A DNA stretch of 32,000 nt, taken from assembly GCF_014696225.1 (NCBI RefSeq), contig NZ_JACJPV010000003.1, positions 104,190 through 136,189 on the forward strand, in the 5' to 3' direction. A model generated the notes under the pieces. It ran no database searches. It saw nothing but the letters and a program-made list of their open reading frames with translations, and was not told the origin of the DNA. A program made the position numbers and the translations under genes. Source of the stretch: Anabaena sp. FACHB-1237. GTDB lineage: Bacteria; Cyanobacteriota; Cyanobacteriia; Cyanobacteriales; Nostocaceae. Below are positions 6,777-21,932 of this stretch, piece by piece; the stretch's first letter is position 1, and the number at the start of each line of letters is the position of its first letter.

Positions 6777-7097
6777 ATGGCAAATAAGCAATTAGTTGAG
6801 TTCGCTTTAGATAGCGGCACTATTTTGGTAGAAGTTGAAGAATCGGTAGATATAGCTATTGAGAGAGTTGCTTTACCATCTGGGCGAGAAATTGCTAAAG
6901 CACAAAAGTCTTTTGAGGAAGCCATAGATAATATTAAGCCATTGGTAACCAATATTGCTAATAAGTTTCAAGACTTAGAACCAAAAGAAATGGAAGTTAA
7001 GTTTGGCATCAAACTAAGTGCTGATGCAGGTGCGTTTATAACTTCTGTAGGTGGGGAAGTTAATTTTGAGATTACGGTGAAGTGGAGTAAAGATTAG
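6777..7097 (+). CDS. Trypco2-like (trypsin-co-occurring domain 2) small protein
   Basis: About 106 aa counted from the ATG at 6777 (the ORF track starts at a TTG at 6771). The C-terminal motif EVKFGIKLSADAGAFITSVGGEVNFEITVKW matches my memory of the Trypco2 / CU044_2847-type family. Its stop lies 13 nt before the trypsin-like protease gene. Confidence 0.7.
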   Translation: MANKQLVEFALDSGTILVEVEESVDIAIERVALPSGREIAKAQKSFEEAIDNIKPLVTNIANKFQDLEPKEMEVKFGIKLSADAGAFITSVGGEVNFEITVKWSKD

Positions 7098-7110
7098 ACT
7101 CGTAGATTTT

Positions 7111-7980
7111 ATGTCAAATGAAAATTACTTTCAGGTCTTTAAAAGTGCGATCGCTCGCATTTATAATCAAAACGGTAAAGTTGTTGGTGCTGGTTTTTTA
7201 GTAAGTCAGTACCATTTTCTTACCTGCGCTCATGTGGTGACAGCAGCTTTAAGTATTGTTACCAGCACACAACAATCACCAGATGGAATTATAGAGGTTG
7301 ATTTTCCCCTCATTGCACCTGGGCAAAAAGTAAAAGCCAAAGTTGTATTTTGGCAACCTGTCAACCCAGGACAAAGTAAGGAAGATATTGCCGGACTACA
7401 CATACAGGATACTCTACCAACAGGAGTGAGTCCTGTAAAACTTGTCACCACATCAGATTATTGGCAACATAAATTCCGCATCTTTGGCTTTCCCCAAGGA
7501 CATGATGCTGGTGTTTGGGCTGACGGTGAACTGCGTGATATTCAAGCTACACGCTGGATACAGATAGAAGCCATTAAAGTTCCTGGGTATCAAATTGAAC
7601 CTGGTTTTAGTGGATCTCCTGTGTGGGATGAATCATTACAGGGAGTTGTGGGAATGGCTGTGGCCGCAGAGAAAAAGCGAGAGAATGTGAAAGCGGCATT
7701 TATGATGCCTACAACAGTGTTAGTGGAAACTTGGGATTTTTTAAATCAAACTGTTGAACAACAAGCAATAAATTCGTTTCCTTCTTTAAGTCGAGTCCAA
7801 GAAATTAAAGCTAAGGAATTGAACAAAAGATTAGTAATTTTAGAAGGCGATTATGAAGCAGTTTACAACCAATTGAATTATACAGAAAATGCCGAAAGTC
7901 GTAATAATTTACAACGACAATTAAATAGAATTGAACAGGATATGAATAAGATTGTCGAACAGTTAAAAATGATCAAGTGA
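7111..7980 (+). CDS. Trypsin-like (S1/chymotrypsin fold) serine protease with a C-terminal helical adaptor tail
   Basis: 289 aa. Catalytic triad contexts are LTCAHVV (His), EDIAGLHI (Asp) and EPGFSGSPVWD (Ser). The last ~65 aa are heptad-like and helical (LNKRLVILEGDYEAVYNQLNYTENAESRNNLQRQLNRIEQDMNKIVEQLK). Confidence 0.85.
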   Translation: MSNENYFQVFKSAIARIYNQNGKVVGAGFLVSQYHFLTCAHVVTAALSIVTSTQQSPDGIIEVDFPLIAPGQKVKAKVVFWQPVNPGQSKEDIAGLHIQDTLPTGVSPVKLVTTSDYWQHKFRIFGFPQGHDAGVWADGELRDIQATRWIQIEAIKVPGYQIEPGFSGSPVWDESLQGVVGMAVAAEKKRENVKAAFMMPTTVLVETWDFLNQTVEQQAINSFPSLSRVQEIKAKELNKRLVILEGDYEAVYNQLNYTENAESRNNLQRQLNRIEQDMNKIVEQLKMIK

Positions 7981-8175
7981 TCACCATTTTAAGTGATAAA
8001 ATAAAACAGACATGATATTTTACACCCTGCTTCAAAATCTTCCTAGTGTTTTATTTGAAATTCTAAAAGAGGATTAATTTGGTGAAAACAGCAGATGCAG
8101 AAAACAGTCGTGATCTTTTAGAATTACTTTTAGAATTAGTAGAGAGAATGCTGATTTACAAATTTTCATCTATTT

Positions 8176-8204
8176 GTAGGGGTTTAGCAATCTTAAACCC
8201 CTAC
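8176..8204 (+). other. Strong hairpin (11-bp stem, 7-nt loop) between the protease and iSTAND-like genes
   Basis: gtaggggttta-gcaatct-taaacccctac read directly. No T-tract follows, so this is not a canonical intrinsic terminator. Confidence 0.6.
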
Positions 8205-8243
8205 TTATAGAATCAAATAATTAAACAATTTTGAGTATAAATT

Positions 8244-9344
8244 ATGGAGATTTTTTATAACATGAAAAAAGCTGACAATATCAGAATTAAAAAGTTAGAA
8301 GAAGAATTTAATCAGAAGAAAAAAGATTACGAAGATACTTGTGACAAATTAAATGAAACCTACGATCCTGAAATCAAAAATAAACTAAATTTAAAAAAAG
8401 ATCGTCTTGAAAGAGAAATGCAAGAAAAGGAGGACGAAATAGAAAAACTAAAATCCTCTACTTCCTATAAAGATGTTACTGAAAAACCAATTTCTCCCTA
8501 TTTAACAATTTTATGTAACCGCACAGAACAAAAATCTCAAATAGAAGAAGAATATAAAAAATTTAAACAGCAAAATTCATATCGTTCCTTGGTTTTTGTC
8601 GTTCATGGTGATGAAAAACAATCTCATGAATCCTTTTTAATTCGGATGCAAGAGTTTATCCTTCCCAAATCAATAGAATCTATATCATACAGATTTAGAA
8701 AACATTTCCTAGAATGGCCTTTAAAATTTGATAATCTCAGAAATCGCTTATTGAAAAATCTATATGAAAATATTTTTAAAAATACGGATGTTTCTCACGA
8801 TAAAATTAAAGATTATTTTATTCAATCATCTAGTGAAGAGTTGATTTTTTATACTGTTATCACAACTAAAAATTGGCAAGAACAAGGATTTAAAATTCTG
8901 GATGAACTATTAAATTTTTGGCAATGGTTGTATAATGAAAATATCATAGAAAAACAAGTAATTATCTGTGTTTTAATTAAATACAAAAATGATGGTAAAA
9001 AAATTAATATAATAATTGAATGGATTAAATCTATCTTCAATTTTAAAAGTCATCATATAACTAATAAAAAAATCTATGCTCATCTAAAATCAATAAACAG
9101 AGACAATAAATTTAATGATTTATTGATCATTTCAGTAGAAGAACTAAATTCAATAACTATCCAAGATGTGAATAACTGGACACATCGTGAGATTATAGAT
9201 TTTATTGACAAAACTAAGATTAATAAATTAAATAGGAAAATTAACCAAATATTTCATGATTGGAAAAAACAAAATTCATCGGAATCAATTCCTATGATGG
9301 AATTAGAGGAACATTTGTCAAAATTACTAGAGGAATTAACATGA
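8244..9344 (+). CDS. Coiled-coil adaptor + P-loop-less STAND-like (iSTAND-type) protein
   Basis: 366 aa. The N-terminal ~75 aa are helical and alignable to the protease tail (DYEDTCDKLNETYDPEIKNKLNLKKDRLEREM). Next comes LCNRTEQKSQIEEEYKKF...SLVFVVHGDEKQSHESFLIRMQEFILP, the strand-loop-helix position where STAND NTPases carry a Walker A. No GxxxxGK[ST] motif occurs anywhere in the protein. The stop overlaps the next gene's start (ATGA). Confidence 0.6.
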   Translation: MEIFYNMKKADNIRIKKLEEEFNQKKKDYEDTCDKLNETYDPEIKNKLNLKKDRLEREMQEKEDEIEKLKSSTSYKDVTEKPISPYLTILCNRTEQKSQIEEEYKKFKQQNSYRSLVFVVHGDEKQSHESFLIRMQEFILPKSIESISYRFRKHFLEWPLKFDNLRNRLLKNLYENIFKNTDVSHDKIKDYFIQSSSEELIFYTVITTKNWQEQGFKILDELLNFWQWLYNENIIEKQVIICVLIKYKNDGKKINIIIEWIKSIFNFKSHHITNKKIYAHLKSINRDNKFNDLLIISVEELNSITIQDVNNWTHREIIDFIDKTKINKLNRKINQIFHDWKKQNSSESIPMMELEEHLSKLLEELT

Positions 9345-10327
9345 AATTACCAATTTACACAGGTACAGGAAACCGTCAAGGAGAACTACCCAAACAACTT
9401 CCAAATTCTTCCCTTTCTCGATTACTCAATCCAGAAAAATACATTGCTGATCAAGGTTTGCGAGATGCTTGTAATGTGGCATTATTATTAGGACAACCTT
9501 TATTACTCACTGGAGAACCAGGAACAGGAAAAACTCAATTAGCTTATAGTCTCGCTTGGGAATTGGGACTTGGTGAAGTTTTAAAATTTGAAACTAAATC
9601 TACTAGTATTGCGCGGGATTTGTTCTATACTTATGATGCCTTAAAGCGATTTCAAAATGTACAAACTGGCTTTGCTTCCACTCAAATTTTAGATTACATC
9701 ACTTATCAAGCATTAGGAAAAGCAATTTTATGTACTCGCAATTTGGAAGAAGTTAAAGAATTTTTACCATTAGAATTTTCTGATAATGGACAGAAGCGTT
9801 CTGTAGTTTTAATTGATGAAATTGATAAAGCACCCCGTGATTTTCCCAATGATTTACTTAATGAATTGGAATTGATGTATTTTCGGATTCCAGAATTAGG
9901 TAATCAAAAAATAGAAGCAGATGCAAAATTGCAACCAATTGTAATTATTACTAGCAATTCGGAAAAAGATTTACCAGATGCTTTTCTGCGACGTTGTATT
10001 TATTATCATCTGCCTTTTCCTGATAATGAACGACTGAAGAATATTATTGCTAATCGGTTAGGAATGAATATTAATGATCCCTTTTTGCAATCAGCTATTA
10101 GTTTATTTGAAAAATTACGTAAAAGTGGTTTGAACAAGCAACCTGGAACTGCTGAATTATTAAGCTGGATTGTTGCTTTACAAAGGTTTAGTAGTATTCC
10201 AGATAATCTTTTAATTCAACTTAATGCTGATTTAATTAACTCTACTCTCAGTAGCTTAATTAAAACTCAAAATGATCAAGAAAAAGCTAAAAAGGTTGTA
10301 GAACAATGGATAAAAGAACAGAAATAG
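9341..10327 (+). CDS. MoxR-class AAA+ ATPase
   Basis: Walker A is LLLTGEPGTGKTQLA and Walker B is VVLIDEIDKAP. Sensor-1 is IVIITSN, and an Arg-rich FLRRC follows. The start is taken as the ATG at 9341, which overlaps the upstream stop (ATGA), rather than the ORF-track start at 9260. Confidence 0.85.
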   Translation: MKLPIYTGTGNRQGELPKQLPNSSLSRLLNPEKYIADQGLRDACNVALLLGQPLLLTGEPGTGKTQLAYSLAWELGLGEVLKFETKSTSIARDLFYTYDALKRFQNVQTGFASTQILDYITYQALGKAILCTRNLEEVKEFLPLEFSDNGQKRSVVLIDEIDKAPRDFPNDLLNELELMYFRIPELGNQKIEADAKLQPIVIITSNSEKDLPDAFLRRCIYYHLPFPDNERLKNIIANRLGMNINDPFLQSAISLFEKLRKSGLNKQPGTAELLSWIVALQRFSSIPDNLLIQLNADLINSTLSSLIKTQNDQEKAKKVVEQWIKEQK

Positions 10328-13182
10328 AAGATAACTTAGATTGGCTAAATCCTGATGTTTTGCTAGAGTTTATTGATAATCTGAGAAACGCAGGTTATAA
10401 TATCGGCATATCTCAATATATTGCAGCACAGGATTTAATTTTGATTCTGACTTCTCAGGGTGAAAATTTGGATAATCCAGAAAATTTGAGAAATTTACTA
10501 GCACCAATATTTTGCAGTTCACCAACTGAACAGGAACAATTTAACCAGTATTTTGATAGCTCTTTTAAATCTGTTCATAAAATTAGTGATTTACAAGAAG
10601 AAACAACACTAGAAAACCCAATATCTTTAGAAGATGAGAAAAAACTAAAATCTCGTTCTCTTTTGTTAATCTTAATTTTGTTAATCTTAATAGTTATTGT
10701 TGCATCAGGAATCCCTTTATTTTTAAAATTCAGTGGTTCTGATAATAATACACCAGGTACAGGTTCTACTAAAACACCAACACCTATTCCTATACCATCA
10801 ACATTACCAACAACAAAACCTACCAATATACCAGATAAAACTTCTATAAGTTGTACTGATAACAAACCCCCAAATCCTATTAACTGGCCAAGAGAAATAG
10901 CATTTTTCTTAACTCCTGCTACTGTGTTTTTTATTATTAGAATGTGGTGGTTTTGGTTAAGTCGTCAGTTGTTTTTACGACGTTATGGAACTACAACTCA
11001 ACCTGAATTACAGAATATTTCTATTGCTGATTTTGATATTGAGCAAGAATTATTCCCAACAATGATTTTTATGCAAATCGCTCGCAATCTCAGACGACGT
11101 ATTTCCATTCCTTCTAATGAATTAGATATAGAAAAAACTATTGATGCAACTTTGCGTCAAGGAGGATATTTAAAACCAATATATCGTAATTATCAAATAC
11201 TTCCAGAATATTTGTTTTTAGTTAATCGTACCAGTTTTCAAGATCATCAAGCTCAATTTATAGAAGAAATAATTAAGCGTCTTAAACAAGAAAATGTTTT
11301 AATTACCAGTTATTTTTTTGATGATGATCCTTTAATTTGTTTTCCTAGTCAGGGAGAAAGTTCTCCTCTCAGACTGGAGGAAATTATCCGTAAATATCAT
11401 CAGCATTATCTAATTTTAGTTTCAGATACAGAGAATTTTTTTAGTATTATTAGTGGTGAATTAGAACCTTGGGTAAGTGAATTAATAAATTGGCAAAGTC
11501 GAGCTTTTCTTACTCCCAAACCCATAAATAATTGGGGTTATCAAGAGTTTCAAATAGCTCAACAATTCATCATTTTACCTGCTACACCAGCAGGGTTACA
11601 GTTATTTAGCCTATTTAGCCAAAAATCCTGGAATCAAGATACATTGAAGTTTTTATTTTTGCAGGAGACAAGTTCAGCAATACCCATACCACAAACGCTG
11701 CGACTTCAATCTTATCGCTGGTTACAACGTAATTCTCCAGAACCGGAAAAAATTGCAACAATGCTAATTTCTCTACGGGAATATTTAGGTGATGATAGTT
11801 TTTATTGGTTTTGTGCTTGTGCTGTTTTTCCTGAGTTGCAATGGAATATAACTATTTATTTGGGTAATGTGCTGAAAACAGAGTTAGGAAAATCTCTTTT
11901 AGAGGTTGATTCTTTGACTACTTTAGCTCGTTTACCTTGGTTTCGTTCTGGTTATATTCCTGACTGGTTGCGTGTTTATTTGATTAAAGAATTGACTCAG
12001 AAACAAGAACAGGAAATTAGAACGGCGCTAAAAAATTTACTCAATCAGGTTAATGATACTTCTGAAAATAAGTTGAAGTTATCAATAGTCAAAACATCTG
12101 TAAAAACTATTGCTGAAGATGGTCTATTAAAAGATTACCTGTTTCTGGATTTTATGACTAAACCATCTTTACTTGATTTTAAAGTACCAGAAAAGTTTAA
12201 TAAGTTATTACCAAAATCCAAAAATCAAGGTTCTAAAAAAACACAAATCAACCGCAGACGATTTTTGCAGATGCTTGGGTTAGGAAGTGCAGGTTTTGTT
12301 GCAGCAGTAGCAGGTAATCAGGTTTTGAAACCGAAAGAACCTACAATAGCTTCTCGTAATTGCAAGTTTGAGGTATTAACAGTAAATTCTCAAGGACAAA
12401 TTATCTCCCGTGTCTTTAGTCAAGCAACGTTTTTTACTGAAGATTTGGGTAATGATATTACTTTGGAGATGGTGGAGATTCCTGGTGGTTCTTTTAATAT
12501 GGGTTCACCAGAGTCAGAAAAGGGTTGGAATAATAATGAAAGTCCACAACATGAGGTAAATGTACCTGCTTTTGCTATGGGTAAATTTGCGGTGACTCAG
12601 GAACAGTATCAACAAGTTATGGGCGAGAATCCTTCTGGGTTTAAAGGAGCAAAACGTCCTGTAGAAACCGTTTCTTGGAATGATGCGGACAAGTTTTGTA
12701 AGAAGCTGAATCAAATTACTCAAAAAACTGGACGTAGTTACAGATTACCCAGTGAGGCAGAATGGGAATATGCTTGTCGTGCAGGGACGACTACACCCTT
12801 TCATTTTGGGGAAACGATTACCAGTGACTTAGCTAATTATGACGGCACTGTGACTTATGCTTCTGAGGCACAAGGTATATATAGAAAACAGACAACAGAT
12901 GTCGGTAGTTTTGCGCCTAATAGCTTTGGTTTGTATGATATGCATGGTAATGTTTGGGAATGGTGTCAAGATAATTGGCATGATAATTATAAAAATGCGC
13001 CTAAAAATGGTAGTGCTTGGACTAGCCAAAGCGATGATAGACAAGTGCTGCGTGGTGGTTCGTGGTTCAGCCTTCCTGATAACTGCCGTTCTGCCATCCG
13101 CAGCAACTACTTCAACCGCGATAACAGGAGCATCGATTTCGGCTTTCGCGTTGTTTGTCTTGTCGTAGCGAGGACTTTTTAG
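10306..13182 (+). CDS. DGR target protein: CoxE-like N-terminal module, two TM helices flanking a Pro/Thr-rich loop, a large central domain, an internal Tat-signal-like TM segment, and a C-terminal FGE-sulfatase (C-type-lectin fold) domain carrying the VR
   Basis: 958 aa. The start overlaps the MoxR gene by 22 nt. The N-terminus LLEFIDNLRNAGYNIGISQYIAAQDL...EQFNQYFDSSF resembles the helical N-module of CoxE-type partners of MoxR/CoxD ATPases. TM segments are SLLLILILLILIVIVASGIPLFL and IAFFLTPATVFFIIRMWWFWL. An internal NRRRFLQMLGLGSAGFVAAVAG is also present. FGE-sulfatase motifs are IPGGSFNMGSP, ETVSWNDADKFC, LPSEAEWEYACRAGT, YDMHGNVWEWCQD and RGGSW...GFRVV. Confidence 0.85.
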   Translation: MDKRTEIEDNLDWLNPDVLLEFIDNLRNAGYNIGISQYIAAQDLILILTSQGENLDNPENLRNLLAPIFCSSPTEQEQFNQYFDSSFKSVHKISDLQEETTLENPISLEDEKKLKSRSLLLILILLILIVIVASGIPLFLKFSGSDNNTPGTGSTKTPTPIPIPSTLPTTKPTNIPDKTSISCTDNKPPNPINWPREIAFFLTPATVFFIIRMWWFWLSRQLFLRRYGTTTQPELQNISIADFDIEQELFPTMIFMQIARNLRRRISIPSNELDIEKTIDATLRQGGYLKPIYRNYQILPEYLFLVNRTSFQDHQAQFIEEIIKRLKQENVLITSYFFDDDPLICFPSQGESSPLRLEEIIRKYHQHYLILVSDTENFFSIISGELEPWVSELINWQSRAFLTPKPINNWGYQEFQIAQQFIILPATPAGLQLFSLFSQKSWNQDTLKFLFLQETSSAIPIPQTLRLQSYRWLQRNSPEPEKIATMLISLREYLGDDSFYWFCACAVFPELQWNITIYLGNVLKTELGKSLLEVDSLTTLARLPWFRSGYIPDWLRVYLIKELTQKQEQEIRTALKNLLNQVNDTSENKLKLSIVKTSVKTIAEDGLLKDYLFLDFMTKPSLLDFKVPEKFNKLLPKSKNQGSKKTQINRRRFLQMLGLGSAGFVAAVAGNQVLKPKEPTIASRNCKFEVLTVNSQGQIISRVFSQATFFTEDLGNDITLEMVEIPGGSFNMGSPESEKGWNNNESPQHEVNVPAFAMGKFAVTQEQYQQVMGENPSGFKGAKRPVETVSWNDADKFCKKLNQITQKTGRSYRLPSEAEWEYACRAGTTTPFHFGETITSDLANYDGTVTYASEAQGIYRKQTTDVGSFAPNSFGLYDMHGNVWEWCQDNWHDNYKNAPKNGSAWTSQSDDRQVLRGGSWFSLPDNCRSAIRSNYFNRDNRSIDFGFRVVCLVVARTF
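13042..13172 (+). repeat. DGR variable repeat (VR) at the 3' end of the target gene
   Basis: 131 nt homologous to TR 14857-14984. All substitutions map to adenines of the TR, and there is one extra in-frame codon. It encodes [43 protein letters not shown]. Confidence 0.93.
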
Positions 13183-13420
13183 CTCTTTGCACTCTTGCGC
13201 TTTTGCGCTATACTCTTTCTTTTCTTTCTTCTATGTCGAGCGTAGCGAGAAAAATTTTTTTTGTCAGAATCAGGATGTCCAGGATGTAAGGATTTACAGG
13301 ATGGGTTGATAGTTTTATGGATGGGTTTTTAGATTAAAATTATTATTAAGTGATATTTAACCAAAATAGTATATAATATATAAGTTGTAAATAATCAAGT
13401 CAAAATTTTTCATAAATTCA

Positions 13421-13783
13421 ATGAGCGAATTATCCATTATCCAAAAAACCTACGATTTGATTAAATGGTATGTACCAATTATCAATCGTCTTCCTAAAGA
13501 GCATAAATTTACACTAGGTGATAGAATGATCAATAGTTTATATGAACTACTAGATGGGTTAATTATTGCTCGGTATGCTAAGGAAAAATTGACAAAATTA
13601 GAGGTGTTAAATAGTCAGTTAGATATTCTCCGCTATCAAACGCGATTATTATTAGATTTTCAATTAATTCCTGGTCATCGTTATGAATATGTGGGAAAAT
13701 CAATTAATGATATTGGTATGGAATTAGGTGGCTGGATTAAAGAACAAAATAAAAGCAAGAGTATTAATCTTAAAACAAAATGA
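13421..13783 (+). CDS. avd: DGR accessory variability determinant (Avd, four-helix-bundle protein)
   Basis: 120 aa. The motifs [30 protein letters not shown]...[11 protein letters not shown]...[10 protein letters not shown] match the Avd/four-helix-bundle family pattern. The stop overlaps the RT start (ATGA). Confidence 0.85.
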
Positions 13784-14838
13784 AACGATACGGTAATCTT
13801 TATTCTCAAATTGTTGATTTTGAAAATATCCTCACAGCCAGCAAAAAAGCCCAAAAAAGTAAGCGATTTCGCCCAAATGTTCTGGAATTTAATTATAATT
13901 TAGAAAGTAACCTCAACAAATTACAACAAGATTTAGTCAACAAAATTTATCAACCAGGTGAATATAGAACATTTTATATTAAAGAACCAAAAACTCGGAT
14001 GATTTCTGCTGCACCATACCGAGATAGGATAGTTCACCATGTCTTATGTAATATTATTATGCCTTTAATTGAACCAACATTTATTGGTGATTCCTATGCA
14101 AATCGTCAGGGTTTTGGTACTCATCGTGCTTTACGTCGGTTTGTAAAGTTTGCTCGTTCTAATCGCTATGTTCTTCAATGTGATATTGAGAAATATTTTC
14201 CTAGTATTGACCATGAAATTCTCAAGATTTTGTTACGACGTAAATTAAAATGTCCTGATACATTGTGGTTAATAGATACTTTAATTGATAATAGTAATGA
14301 ACAATTTTCAGTAGTTGACCATTTTCCAGGAGATAAATTATTAGAACCATTACAAAGACGACGCGGTTTACCCATTGGTAATTTAACCAGTCAGTTTTTT
14401 GCTAATGTTTATCTCAACTATTTTGATCATTTTATTAAAGAACAGCTAAAAATTGAGAAATATTTACGTTATGTGGATGATTTTGCTTTGTTTTCTAATG
14501 ATAGGGAATTGTTAGTTGATGCTAGATATGCTATTGAAGAACACTTAGCAGGATTAAGGCTTAAAATTCATCCTACAAAAAGTCAATTATTTGAAACAAA
14601 ACATGGTGCTAATTTTTTAGGTTTTCGTATTTTACCAAACCAGATTCGAGTCCGCACAGAAAATTTGCGTCGGGCAAAACGCAGAATAAAAAAAATGCAG
14701 GATGACTATATTGATGGTAAGATTAGTTTAGAAAAAGTATCCCAATCAATTCAAAGTTGGTTTGCTCATTTAGAGCATGGGGATACGTGGCAATTAAAAC
14801 AACAGCTATTTGCTACTCTCACTTGGATGAGAGGGTAA
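13780..14838 (+). CDS. DGR-type reverse transcriptase
   Basis: 352 aa with RT motifs [28 protein letters not shown] (the DGR-typical [ILV]GxxxSQ), YVDDF (YxDD catalytic), KIHPTKSQ and FLGFRI. It lies between avd and the TR. Confidence 0.92.
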
Positions 14839-14856
14839 AGAAGGGATGGGCAGCCC

Positions 14857-14984
14857 CAAGTGCTGCGTGGTGGTTCGTGGAACAACAATCCTGAAAACTG
14901 CCGTTCTGCCAACCGCAACAACAACAACCGCGATAACAGGAACAACAATATCGGCTTTCGCGTTGTTTGTCTTGTCGTAGCGAG
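14857..14984 (+). repeat. DGR template repeat (TR)
   Basis: 128 nt starting 19 nt after the RT stop. It is rich in AAC/AAT codons in the VR reading frame (AAC AAC AAT ... AAC CGC AAC AAC AAC AAC ... AAC AAC AAT) and identical to the VR at every non-A position. Confidence 0.93.
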
Positions 14985-15285
14985 CGCTCTTTTGTACCAG
15001 AACTGACGGATGTGAATGCGTTAGGCGTGTCAAAGAAGAGTCCAGACCTGTTCCTGTGATGTTGGTGACAACATCCGAAAATCAAACTCGGTGGGGTAGC
15101 TTAGTAAGTTTGCTGAAAGGTTGCTTCACCCTCTAAATAGGGCTTGCTGAATAAATGTAAAACCTAGATAAATCAAGGGTTTGAGGTGGAAAATAAGGAA
15201 ATAGATGCAAGATTTTCAAGGGGGAGACTCTGAAAAGCGTGCATTTTGGGTTGAATAAATCACAAAATTGAGGGATCGCAGATAG

Positions 15286-15487: not shown

Positions 15488-16429
15488 TTAATTAACACGC
15501 CGACGTAATACTTCTAATAGGGTTTGAAAGCTAGGAGGAGGAGGAGCGATCGCTTCTATCCATTCTTGGGAAATAGGATGTTGTAACCGCAGTTTCCAAG
15601 CGTGTAATGCTTGTCCTGGAATATTGACTCCTAAAGAACGTCCAGAACCATACACAGGATCACCTATGATGGGATGTCCGATTTTGCTAATATGTACTCT
15701 AATTTGATGGGTTCTTCCTGTTTCTAAACGAAAATACATTAATGTATAATTTCCTAATCTTTCTTCAATGCGCCAATGAGTAACTGCACTACGTCCTCCT
15801 GACTCTAGGGGAACGATGGCCATTTTTTTGCGATCTTGGGGATGACGGCCAATGGGTAGGTCTATTGTCCCACTGTTGGTTTTGGGGACTCCATATACTA
15901 AGCCTAAATATTCTCTTCTGGCGGTTTTTGCTTGTAATTGTGCTTGTAGATGTTGATAAGCTAGGTCTGTTTTAGCGATCGCTATTGCTCCTGTGGTATC
16001 TTTGTCTAATCTATGAACTATTCCAGGGCGTTGTATTCCACCTATTCCTGGTAAATTGGGGCAGTGAGATAATAGAGCGTTTACTAACGTTCCATCATGG
16101 TGTCCAGGTGCAGGATGAACTACTAAACCCGCAGGTTTGTTGAGAATGAGGAGTTGATCATCTTCATAGAGGATATCTAAGGGGATATTTTGGGCTGTGA
16201 TTTGTAAAGGTTGACTTTCAGGGATTGTGATGATGATGCGATCGCCAATTTTGAGTTTATCTTTTTTAGAAGTGCAAATTTTACCATTGACTTGTACGCA
16301 ATTGTCACTAATTAATTGCTGAATACGAGAACGTGAGAAATCTGATAATGTTTCTGATAAATACCGATCTAAACGTTCACAATTAACAGTAACTTGAATA
16401 TCAATTACAGAATTAATGACAGACATCAT
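15488..16429 (-). CDS. rluD: RluA-family 23S rRNA pseudouridine synthase (RluD-like)
   Basis: 313 aa. It has an N-terminal S4-like domain (RLDRYLSE...QVNGK) and the catalytic motif HRLDKDTTG. GRTHQIRVH is also present. Confidence 0.9.
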   Translation of the reverse strand: MMSVINSVIDIQVTVNCERLDRYLSETLSDFSRSRIQQLISDNCVQVNGKICTSKKDKLKIGDRIIITIPESQPLQITAQNIPLDILYEDDQLLILNKPAGLVVHPAPGHHDGTLVNALLSHCPNLPGIGGIQRPGIVHRLDKDTTGAIAIAKTDLAYQHLQAQLQAKTARREYLGLVYGVPKTNSGTIDLPIGRHPQDRKKMAIVPLESGGRSAVTHWRIEERLGNYTLMYFRLETGRTHQIRVHISKIGHPIIGDPVYGSGRSLGVNIPGQALHAWKLRLQHPISQEWIEAIAPPPPSFQTLLEVLRRRVN

Positions 16430-16802: not shown

Positions 16803-17897
16803 ATGAAAACCATACCTATTAGTAGATATAGATTTTTTCAAAAATTACAGCCTGTGAACTTATTAACTAAGATGGCTAATAAGTGTTTTACTGGTTGTTT
16901 GCAGGTATTTAGTGAGTTTGGTACGTGGTCAATATATATGGATAAAGGTAAAGTAATATATGCTGGTTATTCTGAAAAGATGTTTGAACCACTGTATAGA
17001 AATTTGCAAATTTTAAGTAAAAGAGTTGCGACAATTCCCCAGGGAATTAATGATAAGTTAAGAATAATTTTTGAAAAAAATAGGGAAAATTCTTCTATTG
17101 CGAACCCTGAATATTTAGCTATTTGCTGGTTAGTTAAGGAGAGGTATATTAGTGATTTACAATCTGCGATATTAATTGAACAATTAGCAATTGAAACTTT
17201 ACAATCTTTGTTAAAGTTAGAATATGGTAGTTATGAGTTTATTCCTGATACTTTTTTAGATAATTTACCTAAATTTTGCCATTTAGATTTAACATCTTTA
17301 TTAGATTATTGTCGTTATGGTGCCAAATTTAATCCAGAGGAGAGATATAATTCTCAATATAATATTTATGATCGTTATTATGATTCCGATGAAGGTAAAA
17401 AAGAACCAGTAGAGACATTTCAGGAGGAATTACCATCAGTAGATCAGATAGAATTAGATTATAAAGATGATCAAAGTCAAAGTCAACTTCAATTATTTAG
17501 TTATCAAAGTAATTACCAAAAAAGTGATAAGAAGAAATATTGTGTTTTTTGTGTAGATGAGAATTTACAAATGTTAAATAATATTCAAGATTTTTTGGAT
17601 GAACAAATATTTGCAGTGGTAAAATTTACTAATTCGTCTCAAGCATTAATGGAAATTTTAAATGTCAAACCGGATATGATTTTGTTAAATATTGCTATGA
17701 GGAATTTAGATGGTTATGAGGTTTGTTCATTATTAAGAAAAAATCCTAATTATCAGGATATACCTGTAATTTTAATGACAGAAAGAATGGGTTTAAGGAA
17801 TCGAGCGAAAGCGAAAATTGTCAAAGCTAATAGTTATTTAGAAACACCTTTTACTCAAGAAGATTTATTGAAGAAAGTTTTTGAGCATATTGTTTAG
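16803..17897 (+). CDS. PatA-like protein: N-terminal PATAN (DUF4388-type) domain + C-terminal CheY-like pseudo-receiver
   Basis: 364 aa. The N-terminus contains FTGCLQVFSEFGTWSIYMDKGKVIYA, a PATAN-like pattern. The C-terminal receiver fold is VFCVDEN...PDMILLNIAMRNLDGYE...PVILMTE...SYLETPF. The phospho-acceptor position is Asn and the conserved Lys position is Thr. Confidence 0.75.
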   Translation: MKTIPISRYRFFQKLQPVNLLTKMANKCFTGCLQVFSEFGTWSIYMDKGKVIYAGYSEKMFEPLYRNLQILSKRVATIPQGINDKLRIIFEKNRENSSIANPEYLAICWLVKERYISDLQSAILIEQLAIETLQSLLKLEYGSYEFIPDTFLDNLPKFCHLDLTSLLDYCRYGAKFNPEERYNSQYNIYDRYYDSDEGKKEPVETFQEELPSVDQIELDYKDDQSQSQLQLFSYQSNYQKSDKKKYCVFCVDENLQMLNNIQDFLDEQIFAVVKFTNSSQALMEILNVKPDMILLNIAMRNLDGYEVCSLLRKNPNYQDIPVILMTERMGLRNRAKAKIVKANSYLETPFTQEDLLKKVFEHIV

Positions 17898-20312: not shown

Positions 20313-20527
20313 AGATAGAAGCCAGTGAAAGTTTTTGAATTATACAATAACTAAGTCATATTACTCGCTTATGCTATTGATAATAATTTGTAATGATAAC
20401 ATTTGTTAACTATTGTAAATTTTTGTGTTATTGTAACAGAGTACACAATAATAATTTTCTAGTTCACCAGCGTTACCATATTTCCGCAATTTGCAAATTT
20501 AATTTAAACACTCAAGGTTTACATATC

Positions 20528-21487
20528 ATGTCCATTACCATTGACTCAGCTCGCAGTATTTTCCCCAAAACTTTATCTGCGGACGCTGTACCAGCAACTA
20601 TCGCTAGATTTAAACAACTCAGTGCCGAGGATCAATTAGCATGGACTTGGTTTGCTTATTTAGAAATGGGTAAAACAATCACAATAGCTGCTCCTGGTGC
20701 TGCTAGTATGCAGTTTGCGGAACCAACGCTTAATCAAATTCGGAATATGACTTTTGCTGAACAGTCACAGGTGATGTGTGACTTAGCAAATAATGCTGAT
20801 ACACCGATTTGCCGCACCTACGCTGCTTGGTCTGCAAATATCAAATTAGGCTTTTGGTATCAACTTGGACAATGGATGGATCAAGGTATCGTTGCTCCTA
20901 TTCCAGCCAATTACCAACTTTCTGCTAACGCTGAAGCAGTTTTGCAAGCAGTTAGAGAACTAGATCAAGGTCAACAAATTACTGTTTTACGCAGTTCTGT
21001 AGTTGATATGGGTTATGATGTGAATAAGTTAGGCAATTACACTAGAGTTAGTGAGCCTGTTGTTGCACCCAAAGAAATATCACAACGCAGTAAAGTAACT
21101 ATTGAAGGTGTGAATAATTCAGTGGTATTAAGCTATATGAATAATATGAATGCCAATGATTTTGGTAGTCTAATTCAATTATTCGCAAATGATGGTGCTT
21201 TACAGCCTCCTTTTCAAAAACCTATTATTGGTAAAGATGCAATTCTGAGATTTTTCAAAGAAGAATGCCAAAACCTGAATTTACTTCCAGAACGGGGAGT
21301 TGTTGAAGCCGCAGAAGAGGGTTATACTCAGATAAAAGTTACTGGTAAGGTGCAAACTCCTTGGTTTGGTGCTGCGGTAGGAATGAATATGGCTTGGCGA
21401 TTTTTACTCAATCCAGAAGGTAAAATTTTCTTTGTAGCAATTGATTTATTAGCATCTCCCAAAGAACTTTTAAATCTGATTCGTTAA
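20528..21487 (+). CDS. ocp: Orange carotenoid protein (OCP1-type)
   Basis: 319 aa from the ATG at 20528. The sequence MSITIDSARSIFPKTLSADAVPATIARFKQLSAEDQLAWTWFAYLEMGKTITIAAPGAA ... KVQTPWFGAAVGMNMAWRFLLNPEGKIFFVAIDLLASPKELLN is near-collinear with the Synechocystis OCP as I remember it. The ORF-track extension to 20393 is rejected. Confidence 0.95.
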   Translation: MSITIDSARSIFPKTLSADAVPATIARFKQLSAEDQLAWTWFAYLEMGKTITIAAPGAASMQFAEPTLNQIRNMTFAEQSQVMCDLANNADTPICRTYAAWSANIKLGFWYQLGQWMDQGIVAPIPANYQLSANAEAVLQAVRELDQGQQITVLRSSVVDMGYDVNKLGNYTRVSEPVVAPKEISQRSKVTIEGVNNSVVLSYMNNMNANDFGSLIQLFANDGALQPPFQKPIIGKDAILRFFKEECQNLNLLPERGVVEAAEEGYTQIKVTGKVQTPWFGAAVGMNMAWRFLLNPEGKIFFVAIDLLASPKELLNLIR

Positions 21488-21519
21488 CATACTTTTTAGC
21501 AAGCTAAATAATTACTCAG

Positions 21520-21550
21520 GCGCTCTTTATTAGAGAGCGCTTTGTTTTTT
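21520..21550 (+). terminator. Intrinsic terminator after ocp
   Basis: gcgctct-ttattag-agagcgc (7-bp GC-rich stem) followed by tttgtttttt. Confidence 0.8.
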
Positions 21551-21580
21551 AAGTAGTTTTTTAAGTAGTTTTTTAAGTAA
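21545..21580. repeat. 12-nt tandem repeat (ttttttaagtag x3)
   Basis: Read directly between the ocp terminator and the frp start. Confidence 0.85.
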
Positions 21581-21599
21581 ATATTGGAGAGCAGTACAA

Positions 21600-21932
21600 G
21601 TGAATGAAGTAGAATGGTCTGATACGGAGAAAGAAATAGCAAAGGAAGCATTTAATAAAGCTTATGTTAGAGAAGTTAATAATTTGATTAAAGAAGTTCG
21701 TGAACTAGCAAATTCAATTTCTGAATTGAATCATTTATGGCAATTACACGATTTTTTAAGTGCCAGAAGGCACGAAATAGATGGTAAGTATGATTACCGT
21801 GACTCAGTGCTGATTTTTGTTTTTGCTAGACTGGTTAATGAAGGTTTGTTGGATATCAAGGAACTAGAAGGATTGAACAAAGATAAACTGATTAAAATAG
21901 CTGCTCTTGCACGTATGCAAAATTTTACTTGA
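21600..21932 (+). CDS. frp: Fluorescence recovery protein (FRP)
   Basis: 110 aa with a GTG start. LWQLHDFLSARRHEIDGKYDYRDSVLIFVFARLVNEGLL matches the conserved FRP core (LHDFLS..RHEIDGKYD.R.SV.IFVFA.L). It is immediately downstream of ocp, as in other cyanobacteria. Confidence 0.9.
   Translation: MNEVEWSDTEKEIAKEAFNKAYVREVNNLIKEVRELANSISELNHLWQLHDFLSARRHEIDGKYDYRDSVLIFVFARLVNEGLLDIKELEGLNKDKLIKIAALARMQNFT

Follow-up and report, generated by a model that had tools for sequence, protein, structure and literature searches.

We analysed a 32,000-nucleotide stretch of the genome of the cyanobacterium Anabaena sp. FACHB-1237 (contig NZ_JACJPV010000003.1; the whole stretch is referred to below as the window). 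Seven genes on its + strand, the first of which starts at position 6777, make up a locus whose last part is a diversity-generating retroelement (DGR). We assign it to the iSTAND-type MoxR-vWA ternary conflict systems, a predicted kind described by Kaur et al. (2020; PMC7159879); an EAD9/Trypco1/trypsin pair and a resident DGR accompany the core. Its receptor corresponds to the vWA component in that published scheme, and we therefore regard the locus as an instance of a named architecture and not as a new composite. On balance, we find it moderately probable that the whole is best explained by a DGR-diversified sensor acting through a MoxR/vWA switch upon a protease recruited by EAD9.

An initial annotation, made from the letters of the window, had proposed that the seven genes form one functional unit. 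This view is sustained by the conserved linkage of the genes in other genomes, by matching EAD9 domains in the protease and in the iSTAND protein, by an open reading frame (ORF) that fuses these two proteins in a related cyanobacterium, and by the location of the variable repeat (VR) of the DGR inside the scaffold gene. Both the cellular role of DGRs in cyanobacteria and the working of MoxR-vWA ternary systems rest almost wholly on comparative genomics. Here, the candidate sensor, its diversifier, the switch, the adaptor, and the effector are assembled within about 8.4 kb of a cultured Anabaena strain. With this size and with all of its ORFs intact, the locus is therefore a compact candidate for heterologous reconstitution. 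It offers a test case for a periplasmic hypervariable domain that would trigger a cytoplasmic protease, for homotypic pairing of EAD domains, and for iSTAND as an assembly platform.

Results

The protease and the iSTAND protein share an EAD9 domain

The first two genes of the locus encode a protein of 106 amino acids, counted from the ATG (6777-7097), and a serine protease of 289 amino acids, predicted to be cytoplasmic (7111-7980). The initial annotation had taken the small protein for Trypco2-like. That assignment is ruled out, as its sole Pfam match is to Trypco1 (PF19493, E = 2.8e-25); the protein also matches the NCBIfam CU044_2847 family (E = 1.9e-21). Trypco1 is a small partner gene of trypsin-type effectors. 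The second product had correctly been called a trypsin-like protease: it matches Trypsin_2 (E = 3.9e-14), contains the motifs CAH (residues 39-41), DIA (residue 92), and GFSGSP (residues 165-170), and has no evident signal peptide.

At its C terminus, the protease carries an EAD9 domain (residues 227-288, nt 7789-7974; PF19962, E = 7.7e-22). Another EAD9 occupies the N terminus of the iSTAND protein (residues 10-69, nt 8271-8450; E = 2.2e-8), and the two copies match each other in BLASTP (E = 8e-7). This sharing of EAD9 between a component of the core and an enzymatic effector encoded nearby is the pattern of EAD-coupled effectors. Overlooked in the initial annotation, the EAD9-EAD9 pair is the predicted physical link of the protease to the switch. 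In Dolichospermum sp. ST_sed8 (locus L002, 7278-9008), one ORF comprises Trypsin_2, a single EAD9, and iSTAND, and it looks as if this fusion arose by recombination between both EAD9 copies. The fusion ORF argues that protease and iSTAND are functionally connected by way of the EAD9 position.

The iSTAND protein and the ATPase of the ternary core

The iSTAND gene (8244-9344, 366 amino acids) is followed by the gene for a MoxR-like ATPase (9341-10327), whose 328 amino acids are counted from the ATG that overlaps the upstream stop codon. The iSTAND protein matches PF19995 with E = 3.9e-15 and 57 bits against a cut-off of 24. Its P-loop position reads HGDEKQSH (residue 121) in place of GxxxxGK[ST]. 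Since H121 and G122 are almost invariant in 59 homologues, we regard this as a P-loop position without GK[ST], and the degenerate motif together with the iSTAND match confirms the earlier idea of a STAND-like protein that has lost its P-loop. The Pfam iSTAND family is matched by 57 of 59 partner proteins, which differ in their N termini: these comprise DUF4062, EAD9, EAD8, EAD2, EAD7, caspase, CHAT, TIR, bDLD3, and trypsin domains.

The ATPase, previously assigned to the MoxR class, is upheld as AAA_5/MoxR-like. It matches AAA_5 with E = 4.8e-10 and 40 bits against a curated cut-off of 22, and its class is resolved to this level (MoxR/dynein/midasin), the specific bpMoxR model giving only E = 0.041. 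The Walker A (GEPGTGKT) and Walker B (LIDEID) motifs are intact. The model of the MadB-family ATPase is matched at E = 2.6e-27, under its cut-off, and the best sequence matches in the PDB are midasin AAA modules.

The scaffold combines a membrane-spanning N-terminal part with an FGE-fold tip

The third core gene (10306-13182) encodes the scaffold, or receptor, of 958 amino acids. An AlphaFold2 (AF2) model of residues 1-665, computed from 35 sequences, has a mean predicted local distance difference test (pLDDT) value of 65, which rises above 80 for residues 245-440 and 470-580. The model comprises four N-terminal helices (residues ~12-98, nt 10339-10599), two long transmembrane (TM) helices, a Rossmann-like alpha/beta domain (residues ~245-440, nt 11038-11625), and a helical domain (residues ~463-583). 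Hydropathy places the TM segments at residues 118-136 (TM1, nt 10657-10713) and 198-216 (TM2, nt 10897-10953), with a Pro/Thr-rich loop between them. When the alpha/beta domain was compared with the PDB by Foldseek, the top three matches were the VWA domain of NorD in NorQ-NorD complexes, at marginal scores (E = 7e-4, TM-score 0.38). NorQ is a MoxR-class ATPase and the partner of NorD. A profile search of the PDB with the scaffold found only its formylglycine-generating enzyme (FGE) part, and a profile search of a set of 5.8 billion proteins returned close family members only, none of which is annotated as VWA.

Beyond the helical domain lies a basic linker (residues 584-649), which is of low predicted confidence and rich in Lys and Arg, nine of them within its last 23 residues. 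The C-terminal domain (residues 721-950, nt 12466-13155) has an FGE/C-type-lectin fold (FGE-sulfatase, PF03781, E = 8e-60), in agreement with the proposal that the DGR target belongs to this fold. Its closest solved relatives are PvdO and TvpA, neither an FGE enzyme, and its FGE membership applies at the level of the fold.

A search with residues 1-700 yielded 86 proteins (P0001-P0086) which have the N-terminal part in common and differ in their C-terminal modules. These modules are FGE, WD40, pentapeptide, TPR, MORN, GUN4, CVNH, and substrate-binding proteins, besides amidase_3, VanY, lysozyme, PG_binding, beta-lactamase, CHASE2, and trypsin. The FGE tip is found on 18 of 67 scaffolds.

In the public annotation of strain FACHB-1237, the receptor appears as a 473-amino-acid 'formylglycine-generating enzyme family protein' whose first residue is Met486 of the 958-residue ORF; this protein corresponds to the C-terminal half of the ORF, VR included. 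The annotation of Anabaena sp. UHCC 0204 holds versions of 478 and 966 amino acids (P0170 and P0169 are the proteins concerned). The shortened gene call hides the scaffold with its TM segments and vWA-like domain, and surveys of annotated proteins therefore under-count such systems.

Charge and motif pattern point to an exported tip

The scaffold segment preceding residue 652 contains nine positive and no negative charges and ends in NRRRFLQ, after which comes a weakly hydrophobic stretch, LGLGSAGFVAAVAG. The twin-arginine motif and this stretch span residues 649-672 (nt 12250-12321), so the motif is internal and not N-terminal. Among cyanobacterial homologues with an FGE module, practically every one has RR[RKQ]FL, and the motif also accompanies a few of the amidase, substrate-binding, and lysozyme modules. 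In contrast, paralogues with other C-terminal domains (WD40, pentapeptide, GUN4, TPR, and the like) are mostly without the RR motif, and their third TM segment is more hydrophobic. This split suggests that two export routes exist inside one scaffold family. A homologous fragment bears the NCBI name 'twin-arginine translocation signal domain-containing', and we hypothesise that export of the FGE domain depends on twin-arginine translocation (Tat).

Many of the C-terminal domains of the paralogues (substrate-binding proteins, amidase_3, VanY, lysozyme, PG_binding, beta-lactamase, CHASE2) are typically periplasmic, which argues for an FGE domain that faces the periplasm. PvdO, in pyoverdine maturation, is periplasmic. 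With the TM segments, the charge distribution, the RR motif, and the kinship to PvdO added to the paralogous domains, we consider it quite likely that the FGE domain of the scaffold faces the periplasm. The initial annotation had predicted an extracytoplasmic variable domain, and hydropathy, charge, and the periplasmic type of the paralogous domains uphold this as probable.

A DGR predicted to diversify the receptor tip

The scaffold gene is followed by avd (13421-13783, 120 amino acids) and a reverse transcriptase (RT) gene (13780-14838, 352 amino acids). Both identifications had been made before and hold. Avd passes the NCBIfam equivalog model DivGenRetAVD (NF033474; E = 7.5e-42, 141.9 bits against a cut-off of 80) and matches Pfam bAvd (E = 3.4e-21). 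The RT matches RVT_1 (E = 6.8e-25), contains the motifs IGNLTSQ (residue 199) and YVDD (residue 231), and has the DGR RT of Bordetella phage BPP-1 (8ub7, E = 1.2e-48) as its best solved relative.

The template repeat (TR; 14857-14984) is 128 nt long and contains 35 adenines. The VR (13042-13172) makes up the last ~44 codons of the receptor, in the C-terminal part of the FGE domain. All 13 of the 13 substitutions between TR and VR fall at TR adenines, for which the chance probability is ~7e-9 given 35 A in 128 nt. The TR/VR pair, the only one within the window, is real, and the receptor tip is, as had been proposed, the predicted target of the DGR. Codon positions 1 or 2 hold 32 of the 35 TR adenines, the TR includes 11 AAC and 2 AAT codons, and its coding capacity amounts to ~10^18 protein variants. 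The conserved 3' ends differ between the repeats as expected for the initiation of mutagenic homing (IMH) site and its counterpart IMH*: the VR type reads GAGGACT(T/C)TTTAG and the TR type GAGCGCTCTTTTG. Orthologous VRs in the three relatives L001, L002, and L041 differ from the TR of the window mainly at adenine positions. Judged from this anatomy, the DGR is intact-looking and appears to be functional.

Directly 3' of the TR, a stretch of ~155 nt (14985-15140, + strand) is predicted to form a structured RNA with three hairpins. In an alignment of six DGR loci (the window, L005, L006, L007, L011, and L023), it is strongly conserved, with 45 predicted pairs, 7 of them compensatory. This RNA is probably the functional counterpart of the DGR RNA 'spacer', a region established for BPP-1 (as cited in PMC12691664). 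No Rfam family matches anywhere in the window, and the element is a candidate new RNA family. Since the conserved RNA lies 3' of the TR, the DGR ends near 15140 and not at 14984, the end given by the initial annotation.

The TR and VR differ in length by three nucleotides, in frame, which is unusual. The VR has AGC AAC TAC TTC AAC at 13100-13120 where the TR has four AAC (14915-14932), so that the VR is one codon longer; the bases of the extra codon are all compatible with a mutated AAC. This suggests either slippage of the RT on the AAC run or a later loss of one AAC from the TR.

The 3' flank of the VR passes into an AT-rich spacer upstream of avd (13173-13420). Its non-coding part at 13173-13255 is conserved in L001, L002, L005-L008, L011, and L041, with or without an adjacent DGR, and a second copy of the motif CGTAGCGAG occurs ~75 nt past the copy that ends the VR. 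The conserved sequence may serve retrohoming as a cis element. A search for a hairpin or cruciform 3' of the VR gave nothing significant (z = -0.5), and a GCGC-TTTT-GCGC stem considered there was rejected, as it is not conserved across loci. A GGATG-rich short repeat (caggatgtccaggatgtaaggatttacaggatggg...) is located 3' of the scaffold gene in the window (13254-13330) and in L041 (4406-4481) and is reversed in L001 (13530-13593) and L002 (13817-13862); possibly it is a small mobile or repeated element.

The ternary core is conserved and its partners vary

A scan of 185,579 species genomes with the scaffold gave 288 relatives. Our linkage counts cover 80 loci of the 288 and were scored with profile hidden Markov models (HMMs) built from the window proteins. 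In 67-71 of the 80 loci, the genes for iSTAND, MoxR, and scaffold follow one another collinearly in this order; a contig end cuts most of the remaining loci. The junction between iSTAND and MoxR genes is at most 40 nt long or overlapping in 54 of 67 loci, and that between MoxR and scaffold genes lies within 60 nt in 52 of 69. The triad is spread over several phyla of bacteria, for the most part filamentous ones; its hosts include filamentous Cyanobacteria, Beggiatoaceae/Thiotrichaceae, Chloroflexaceae, Acidobacteriota, Calditrichia, KSB1, and Planctomycetota. The pair of Trypco1 and trypsin-EAD9 is confined to the closest relatives, Anabaena sp. UHCC 0204 (L001), Dolichospermum sp. ST_sed8 (L002), and Dolichospermum heterosporum (L081), in which it belongs to the full set of Trypco1, trypsin-EAD9, EAD9-iSTAND, AAA, and scaffold-FGE.

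Avd and RT genes lie downstream of 6 of the 17 FGE-bearing relatives (L005, L006, L007, L011, L022, and L023), and five of these six also have A-biased TR/VR pairs. Among the scaffolds with other modules, there is a single RT match (L056), which is several kb downstream of the scaffold gene and not adjacent. This neighbourhood survey, with the triad collinear, the protease pair in the three relatives, and Avd-RT in six others, bears out the linkage that the initial annotation had left to be checked. The profile-HMM searches uphold the protease, iSTAND, AAA_5/MoxR-like, FGE, Avd, and RT assignments, with Trypco1 taking the place of Trypco2.

In L001, 48 nt located ~1 kb past the scaffold gene (13879-13926) match hairpin 2 of the TR 3' element with 92% identity, and no avd, RT, or TR is present at the site. 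This stretch was probably left behind when a DGR cassette was deleted. Together with the adenine pattern of the VRs, the remnant suggests that the DGR was secondarily lost in the closest relatives or that diversification occurs there in trans. In D. heterosporum, iSTAND is split into ORFs of 147 and 209 amino acids (L081, 5796-6865), and a DUF2887-like ORF separates the protease from iSTAND; in this genome, the system may be undergoing decay.

Gene packing and surroundings

The seven ORFs are intact, their catalytic motifs are present, and their coordinates match exactly the co-oriented array, with its overlaps and gaps, that had been described before. Trypco1 and protease genes are separated by 13 nt (7097 to 7111). 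A spacer of 263 nt (7981-8243) divides the effector pair from the ternary core, within which iSTAND and MoxR genes share an ATGA overlap (9341-9344) and MoxR and receptor genes overlap by 22 nt (10306-10327). After a gap of 238 nt behind the receptor gene (13183-13420), avd and the RT gene again share ATGA (13780-13783). The tight packing exceeds chance, given that the same junctions are tight in related loci. The 263-nt spacer is variable in relatives: it measures ~1.3 kb in L001, contains an extra small ORF in L081, and has been lost by fusion in L002. Scans for promoter and terminator consensus sequences gave counts at chance level and are uninformative on operon structure.

The locus is flanked, as had been noted, by the cpc operon and rluD. 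Phycocyanin cpcBA, linker, and lyase genes lie upstream on the - strand, and an RluD-like gene (PseudoU_synth_2 and S4 domains; 15488-16429, - strand) lies downstream. Farther downstream are a PatA-like response regulator (DUF4388 and receiver; 16803-17897), the gene of the orange carotenoid protein followed by that of its regulator FRP (20393-21932), and RuvB. The PatA-like regulator and the orange carotenoid protein genes are typical of a heterocystous cyanobacterium and unrelated to the locus.

G+C content is 0.27-0.33 over positions 8000-11500, which comprise the iSTAND and MoxR genes and the N-terminal part of the scaffold, versus 0.38-0.45 in the flanking housekeeping genes. The flanks share no synteny at the nucleotide level with those of the closest relatives, the context of the island differing between genomes, and some family members reside on plasmids (L015, P0037). 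Low G+C, non-syntenic flanks, and plasmid-borne members are compatible with horizontal mobility.

Discussion

How the locus might work

In the mechanism that we propose, Avd, the RT, and the TR RNA with its 3' structured element would copy the TR with adenine-specific errors and replace the VR. By this activity, for which the anatomy is in place, the ligand-binding face of the FGE/C-type-lectin-fold domain would become diversified. The scaffold is predicted to sit in the cytoplasmic membrane with its N terminus inside, TM1 and TM2 bracketing the Pro/Thr-rich loop outside, and the vWA-like and helical domains in the cytoplasm. The FGE domain would be exported past the third, twin-arginine-type segment, and the hypervariable tip would therefore face the periplasm. 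By analogy with other MoxR-vWA pairs, binding of a ligand outside would be relayed to the vWA-like module and this module remodelled by the MoxR-like ATPase. The iSTAND protein may then serve as an assembly platform, upon which a homotypic EAD9-EAD9 contact recruits and activates the protease; the fusion ORF speaks for the link, and activation is our assumption. Trypco1 could act as a regulator or co-factor of the protease. Finally, and speculatively, proteolysis might lead to growth arrest or death of the cell, or to another defensive output, to the benefit of the filament.

A number of observations weigh against this mechanism. iSTAND-type systems are known from comparative genomics alone. 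Trypco1, iSTAND, the scaffold, and Avd are neither matched by PADLOC 2.0 (2023) nor represented among its models, and the protease, ATPase, and RT give generic matches only. The AF2 model of Trypco1 (37 homologues) has a pLDDT of 48 and is uninterpretable. On the scaffold, the TAT model TIGR01409 scores 14.0 bits, under its cut-off of 16.7. Neither Pfam VWA nor VWA_CoxE matches the scaffold, and the metal ion-dependent adhesion site (MIDAS) motif DxSxS is not conserved, the scaffold reading NRTSF with an invariant Arg308 there; what supports a vWA domain is the marginal structural match to NorD. Since no sequence method detects a vWA, the MIDAS is not conserved, and the Foldseek scores are marginal, we call vWA membership of the modelled domain plausible. 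The 263-nt and 238-nt gaps, along with the insertions at the first gap in relatives, permit separate transcription. No DGR adjoins the locus within 3.7-8 kb in the closest relatives (L001, L002, and L041), and D. heterosporum likewise lacks an adjacent one, which makes the DGR a dispensable part. The VR is known from one genome copy, and ongoing mutagenesis is therefore putative. Moreover, Kaur et al. (PMC7159879) favour a different direction of information flow.

According to that published proposal, applied here, iSTAND or a factor bound to it would be an intracellular sensor and MoxR would remodel the vWA scaffold. The EAD9-recruited trypsin would cut the basic linker, and the freed FGE domain would be an antibody-like binder that neutralises an invader molecule, not a sensor. 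The linker at residues 584-649, long, of low confidence, Lys/Arg-rich, and placed just before the exported domain, would suit such a cut, and the paralogous C-terminal domains include possible effector enzymes such as lysozyme, amidase, VanY, and beta-lactamase. However, diversified non-enzymatic binding domains are the recognition modules in every characterised DGR, by the accounts in PMC10907252 and PMC7159879. Furthermore, the iSTAND proteins have no hypervariable or ligand-binding part of their own, as only their adaptor or effector N termini vary, and a related MoxR-vWA pathway uses a variable surface domain as its sensor (bioRxiv 10.64898/2026.09.08.750141). We consider this main rival, an effector-release model, unlikely.

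Alternatively, the scaffold might be a tunable envelope sensor outside defence, responsive to environmental or self-derived ligands, for instance in cell-cell or kin recognition in filaments, or to cell-wall status or nutrients, with a protease that processes a regulator. Cyanobacterial DGR targets were first read as tuners of regulatory pathways (PMC7517822), and many C-terminal domains of the family are of the substrate-binding, peptidoglycan-binding, or CHASE2-type sensor kind. Yet the effector and adaptor modules (TIR, caspase, CHAT, death-like) turn over fast between close relatives, which is a hallmark of conflict, and a variability of ~10^18 is hard to square with a fixed physiological ligand. 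While the locus lies among housekeeping genes, outside any recognisable defence island, and its core finds no PADLOC matches, the family shows further hallmarks of conflict in its patchy distribution, in genomic contexts that differ between close relatives, and in occasional members on plasmids (L015; P0037). We judge a role in non-defence signalling to be improbable.

That protease pair, ATPase triad, and DGR lie side by side without any connection, or that the DGR is dead, is very improbable: the two sizeable intergenic gaps, the closest relatives without an adjacent DGR, the mere 48-nt remnant of the TR 3' element in L001, and the split iSTAND of D. heterosporum would fit such a view, but the matching EAD9 and the fusion ORF bind protease to iSTAND, the VR lies inside the scaffold gene with TR/VR differences exclusively at adenines, the seven ORFs are intact with their catalytic motifs, the DGR placement recurs in six other genomes, and chance juxtaposition is largely refuted because the linkage is conserved.

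The reading that we prefer, a diversified sensor acting through MoxR/vWA upon an EAD9-recruited protease, can tentatively be taken further. The locus might encode an outside-in anticipatory immune receptor, in which a folded, DGR-hypervariable tip exported by Tat probes the periplasm for molecules of an invader, either ahead of the entry of its genome or while this takes place, and switches on a cytoplasmic trypsin-like death protease. The scaffold would then be a polytopic protein inserted by both Sec and Tat, and the signal would pass via the MIDAS-less vWA-like module, MoxR, and the iSTAND/EAD9 platform. We offer this version as a possibility that we ourselves hold to be rather doubtful. 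If true, bacteria would possess in such a receptor a counterpart to transmembrane antigen receptors that are somatically diversified, combined with an apoptosome-like effector platform.

Comparison with known systems

Conflict systems of multicellular bacteria have been surveyed by comparative genomics, and the initial annotation rightly traced the component families to such surveys (PMC7159879, PMC10907252). In the passages on iSTAND systems in PMC7159879, the ternary system consists of an iSTAND protein that bears EADs or effectors at its N terminus, a MoxR that has no extensions, and a vWA protein whose N-terminal domain is of the CoxE-type with four helices; TM segments occur in ~28% of cases, and FGS is the commonest effector (~22%). 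Trypco1 and Trypco2 are described there as partners of trypsin effectors, and EAD coupling as homotypic. The Anabaena locus conforms with its EAD-iSTAND protein, a MoxR without VMAP-type extensions, and a third protein with a predicted four-helix N-terminal domain, TM segments, and a variable C-terminal module, for which FGS/FGE is commonest in both cases (~22% there, 18 of 67 here). It also shares the coupling of Trypco and trypsin via a matching EAD and the bias to filamentous or multicellular bacteria. It differs in its putative vWA domain, which is too divergent for Pfam and without a conserved MIDAS. As far as those passages go, DGR linkage is stated explicitly for VMAP-type systems only, whereas here, and in six more genomes, a DGR stands directly behind an iSTAND-type scaffold; the export position of the FGE domain and the twin-arginine motif are absent from the same passages.

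That MoxR ternary systems may combine sensors diversified by a DGR with trypsin effectors recruited via EADs is already a published concept. Dore et al. (2024, PMC10907252) proposed DGR-diversified C-type lectin (CLec) domains as antigen sensors, with signalling from sensor to MoxR to peptidase. 'DGR 9' of Thiohalocapsa PB-PSB1 in that study comprises MoxR and a trypsin-like peptidase, besides a multi-TM target that is extended at the N terminus by an unassigned part and whose TM segments may put the CLec domain in the periplasm. 'DGR 9' looks like the same sub-type as the Anabaena locus. Unlike our account, PMC10907252 does not contain the term iSTAND, and Thiohalocapsa PB-PSB1 is a gammaproteobacterium with nine DGRs, in contrast to the single compact locus of a cultured Anabaena. 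Co-expression of MoxR and vWA with a DGR target has been observed in Nostoc punctiforme, together with adenine mutagenesis at a low level (mBio 2025, PMC12691664).

The retroelement itself resembles the BPP-1 DGR (Mtd/Avd/bRT/TR) and that of Treponema denticola TvpA in its Avd and RT, in the adenine-specific differences between TR and VR, in a C-type-lectin/FGE fold that has the VR at its C-terminal end, and in a structured RNA beside the TR. The gene order is target-avd-RT-TR versus target-avd-TR-RT there. Its target is a polytopic cellular membrane protein encoded in a signalling or conflict operon, whereas a phage tail fibre is the target in BPP-1 and TvpA is a lipoprotein.

Similar to NorQ-NorD and CoxD-CoxE, an AAA_5-class ATPase adjoins a partner with a central domain that resembles the NorD VWA, and four N-terminal helices are predicted as in CoxE-type proteins. 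Unlike those pairs, the Anabaena locus has no metallo-enzyme client nearby, its MIDAS is degenerate, and the partner is embedded in the membrane and bears a hypervariable domain predicted to be exported.

The Esr pathway of Schaalia odontolytica (Actinomycetales), composed of MoxR, vWA, and a beta-propeller, has been shown experimentally to sense an epibiont at the cell surface (bioRxiv 10.64898/2026.09.08.750141). A beta-propeller, carried by a filamentous surface protein and not diversified by a DGR, serves as its sensor, and there is no iSTAND, unlike in the Anabaena system; its output is a kinase/phosphatase-FHA relay to Esx secretion, as opposed to an EAD-recruited protease. What the two have in common is a variable surface domain as the sensor and a conserved MoxR and vWA pair that relays the signal inward. 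Esr thus provides the first experimental support for outside-in signalling in the MoxR-vWA class.

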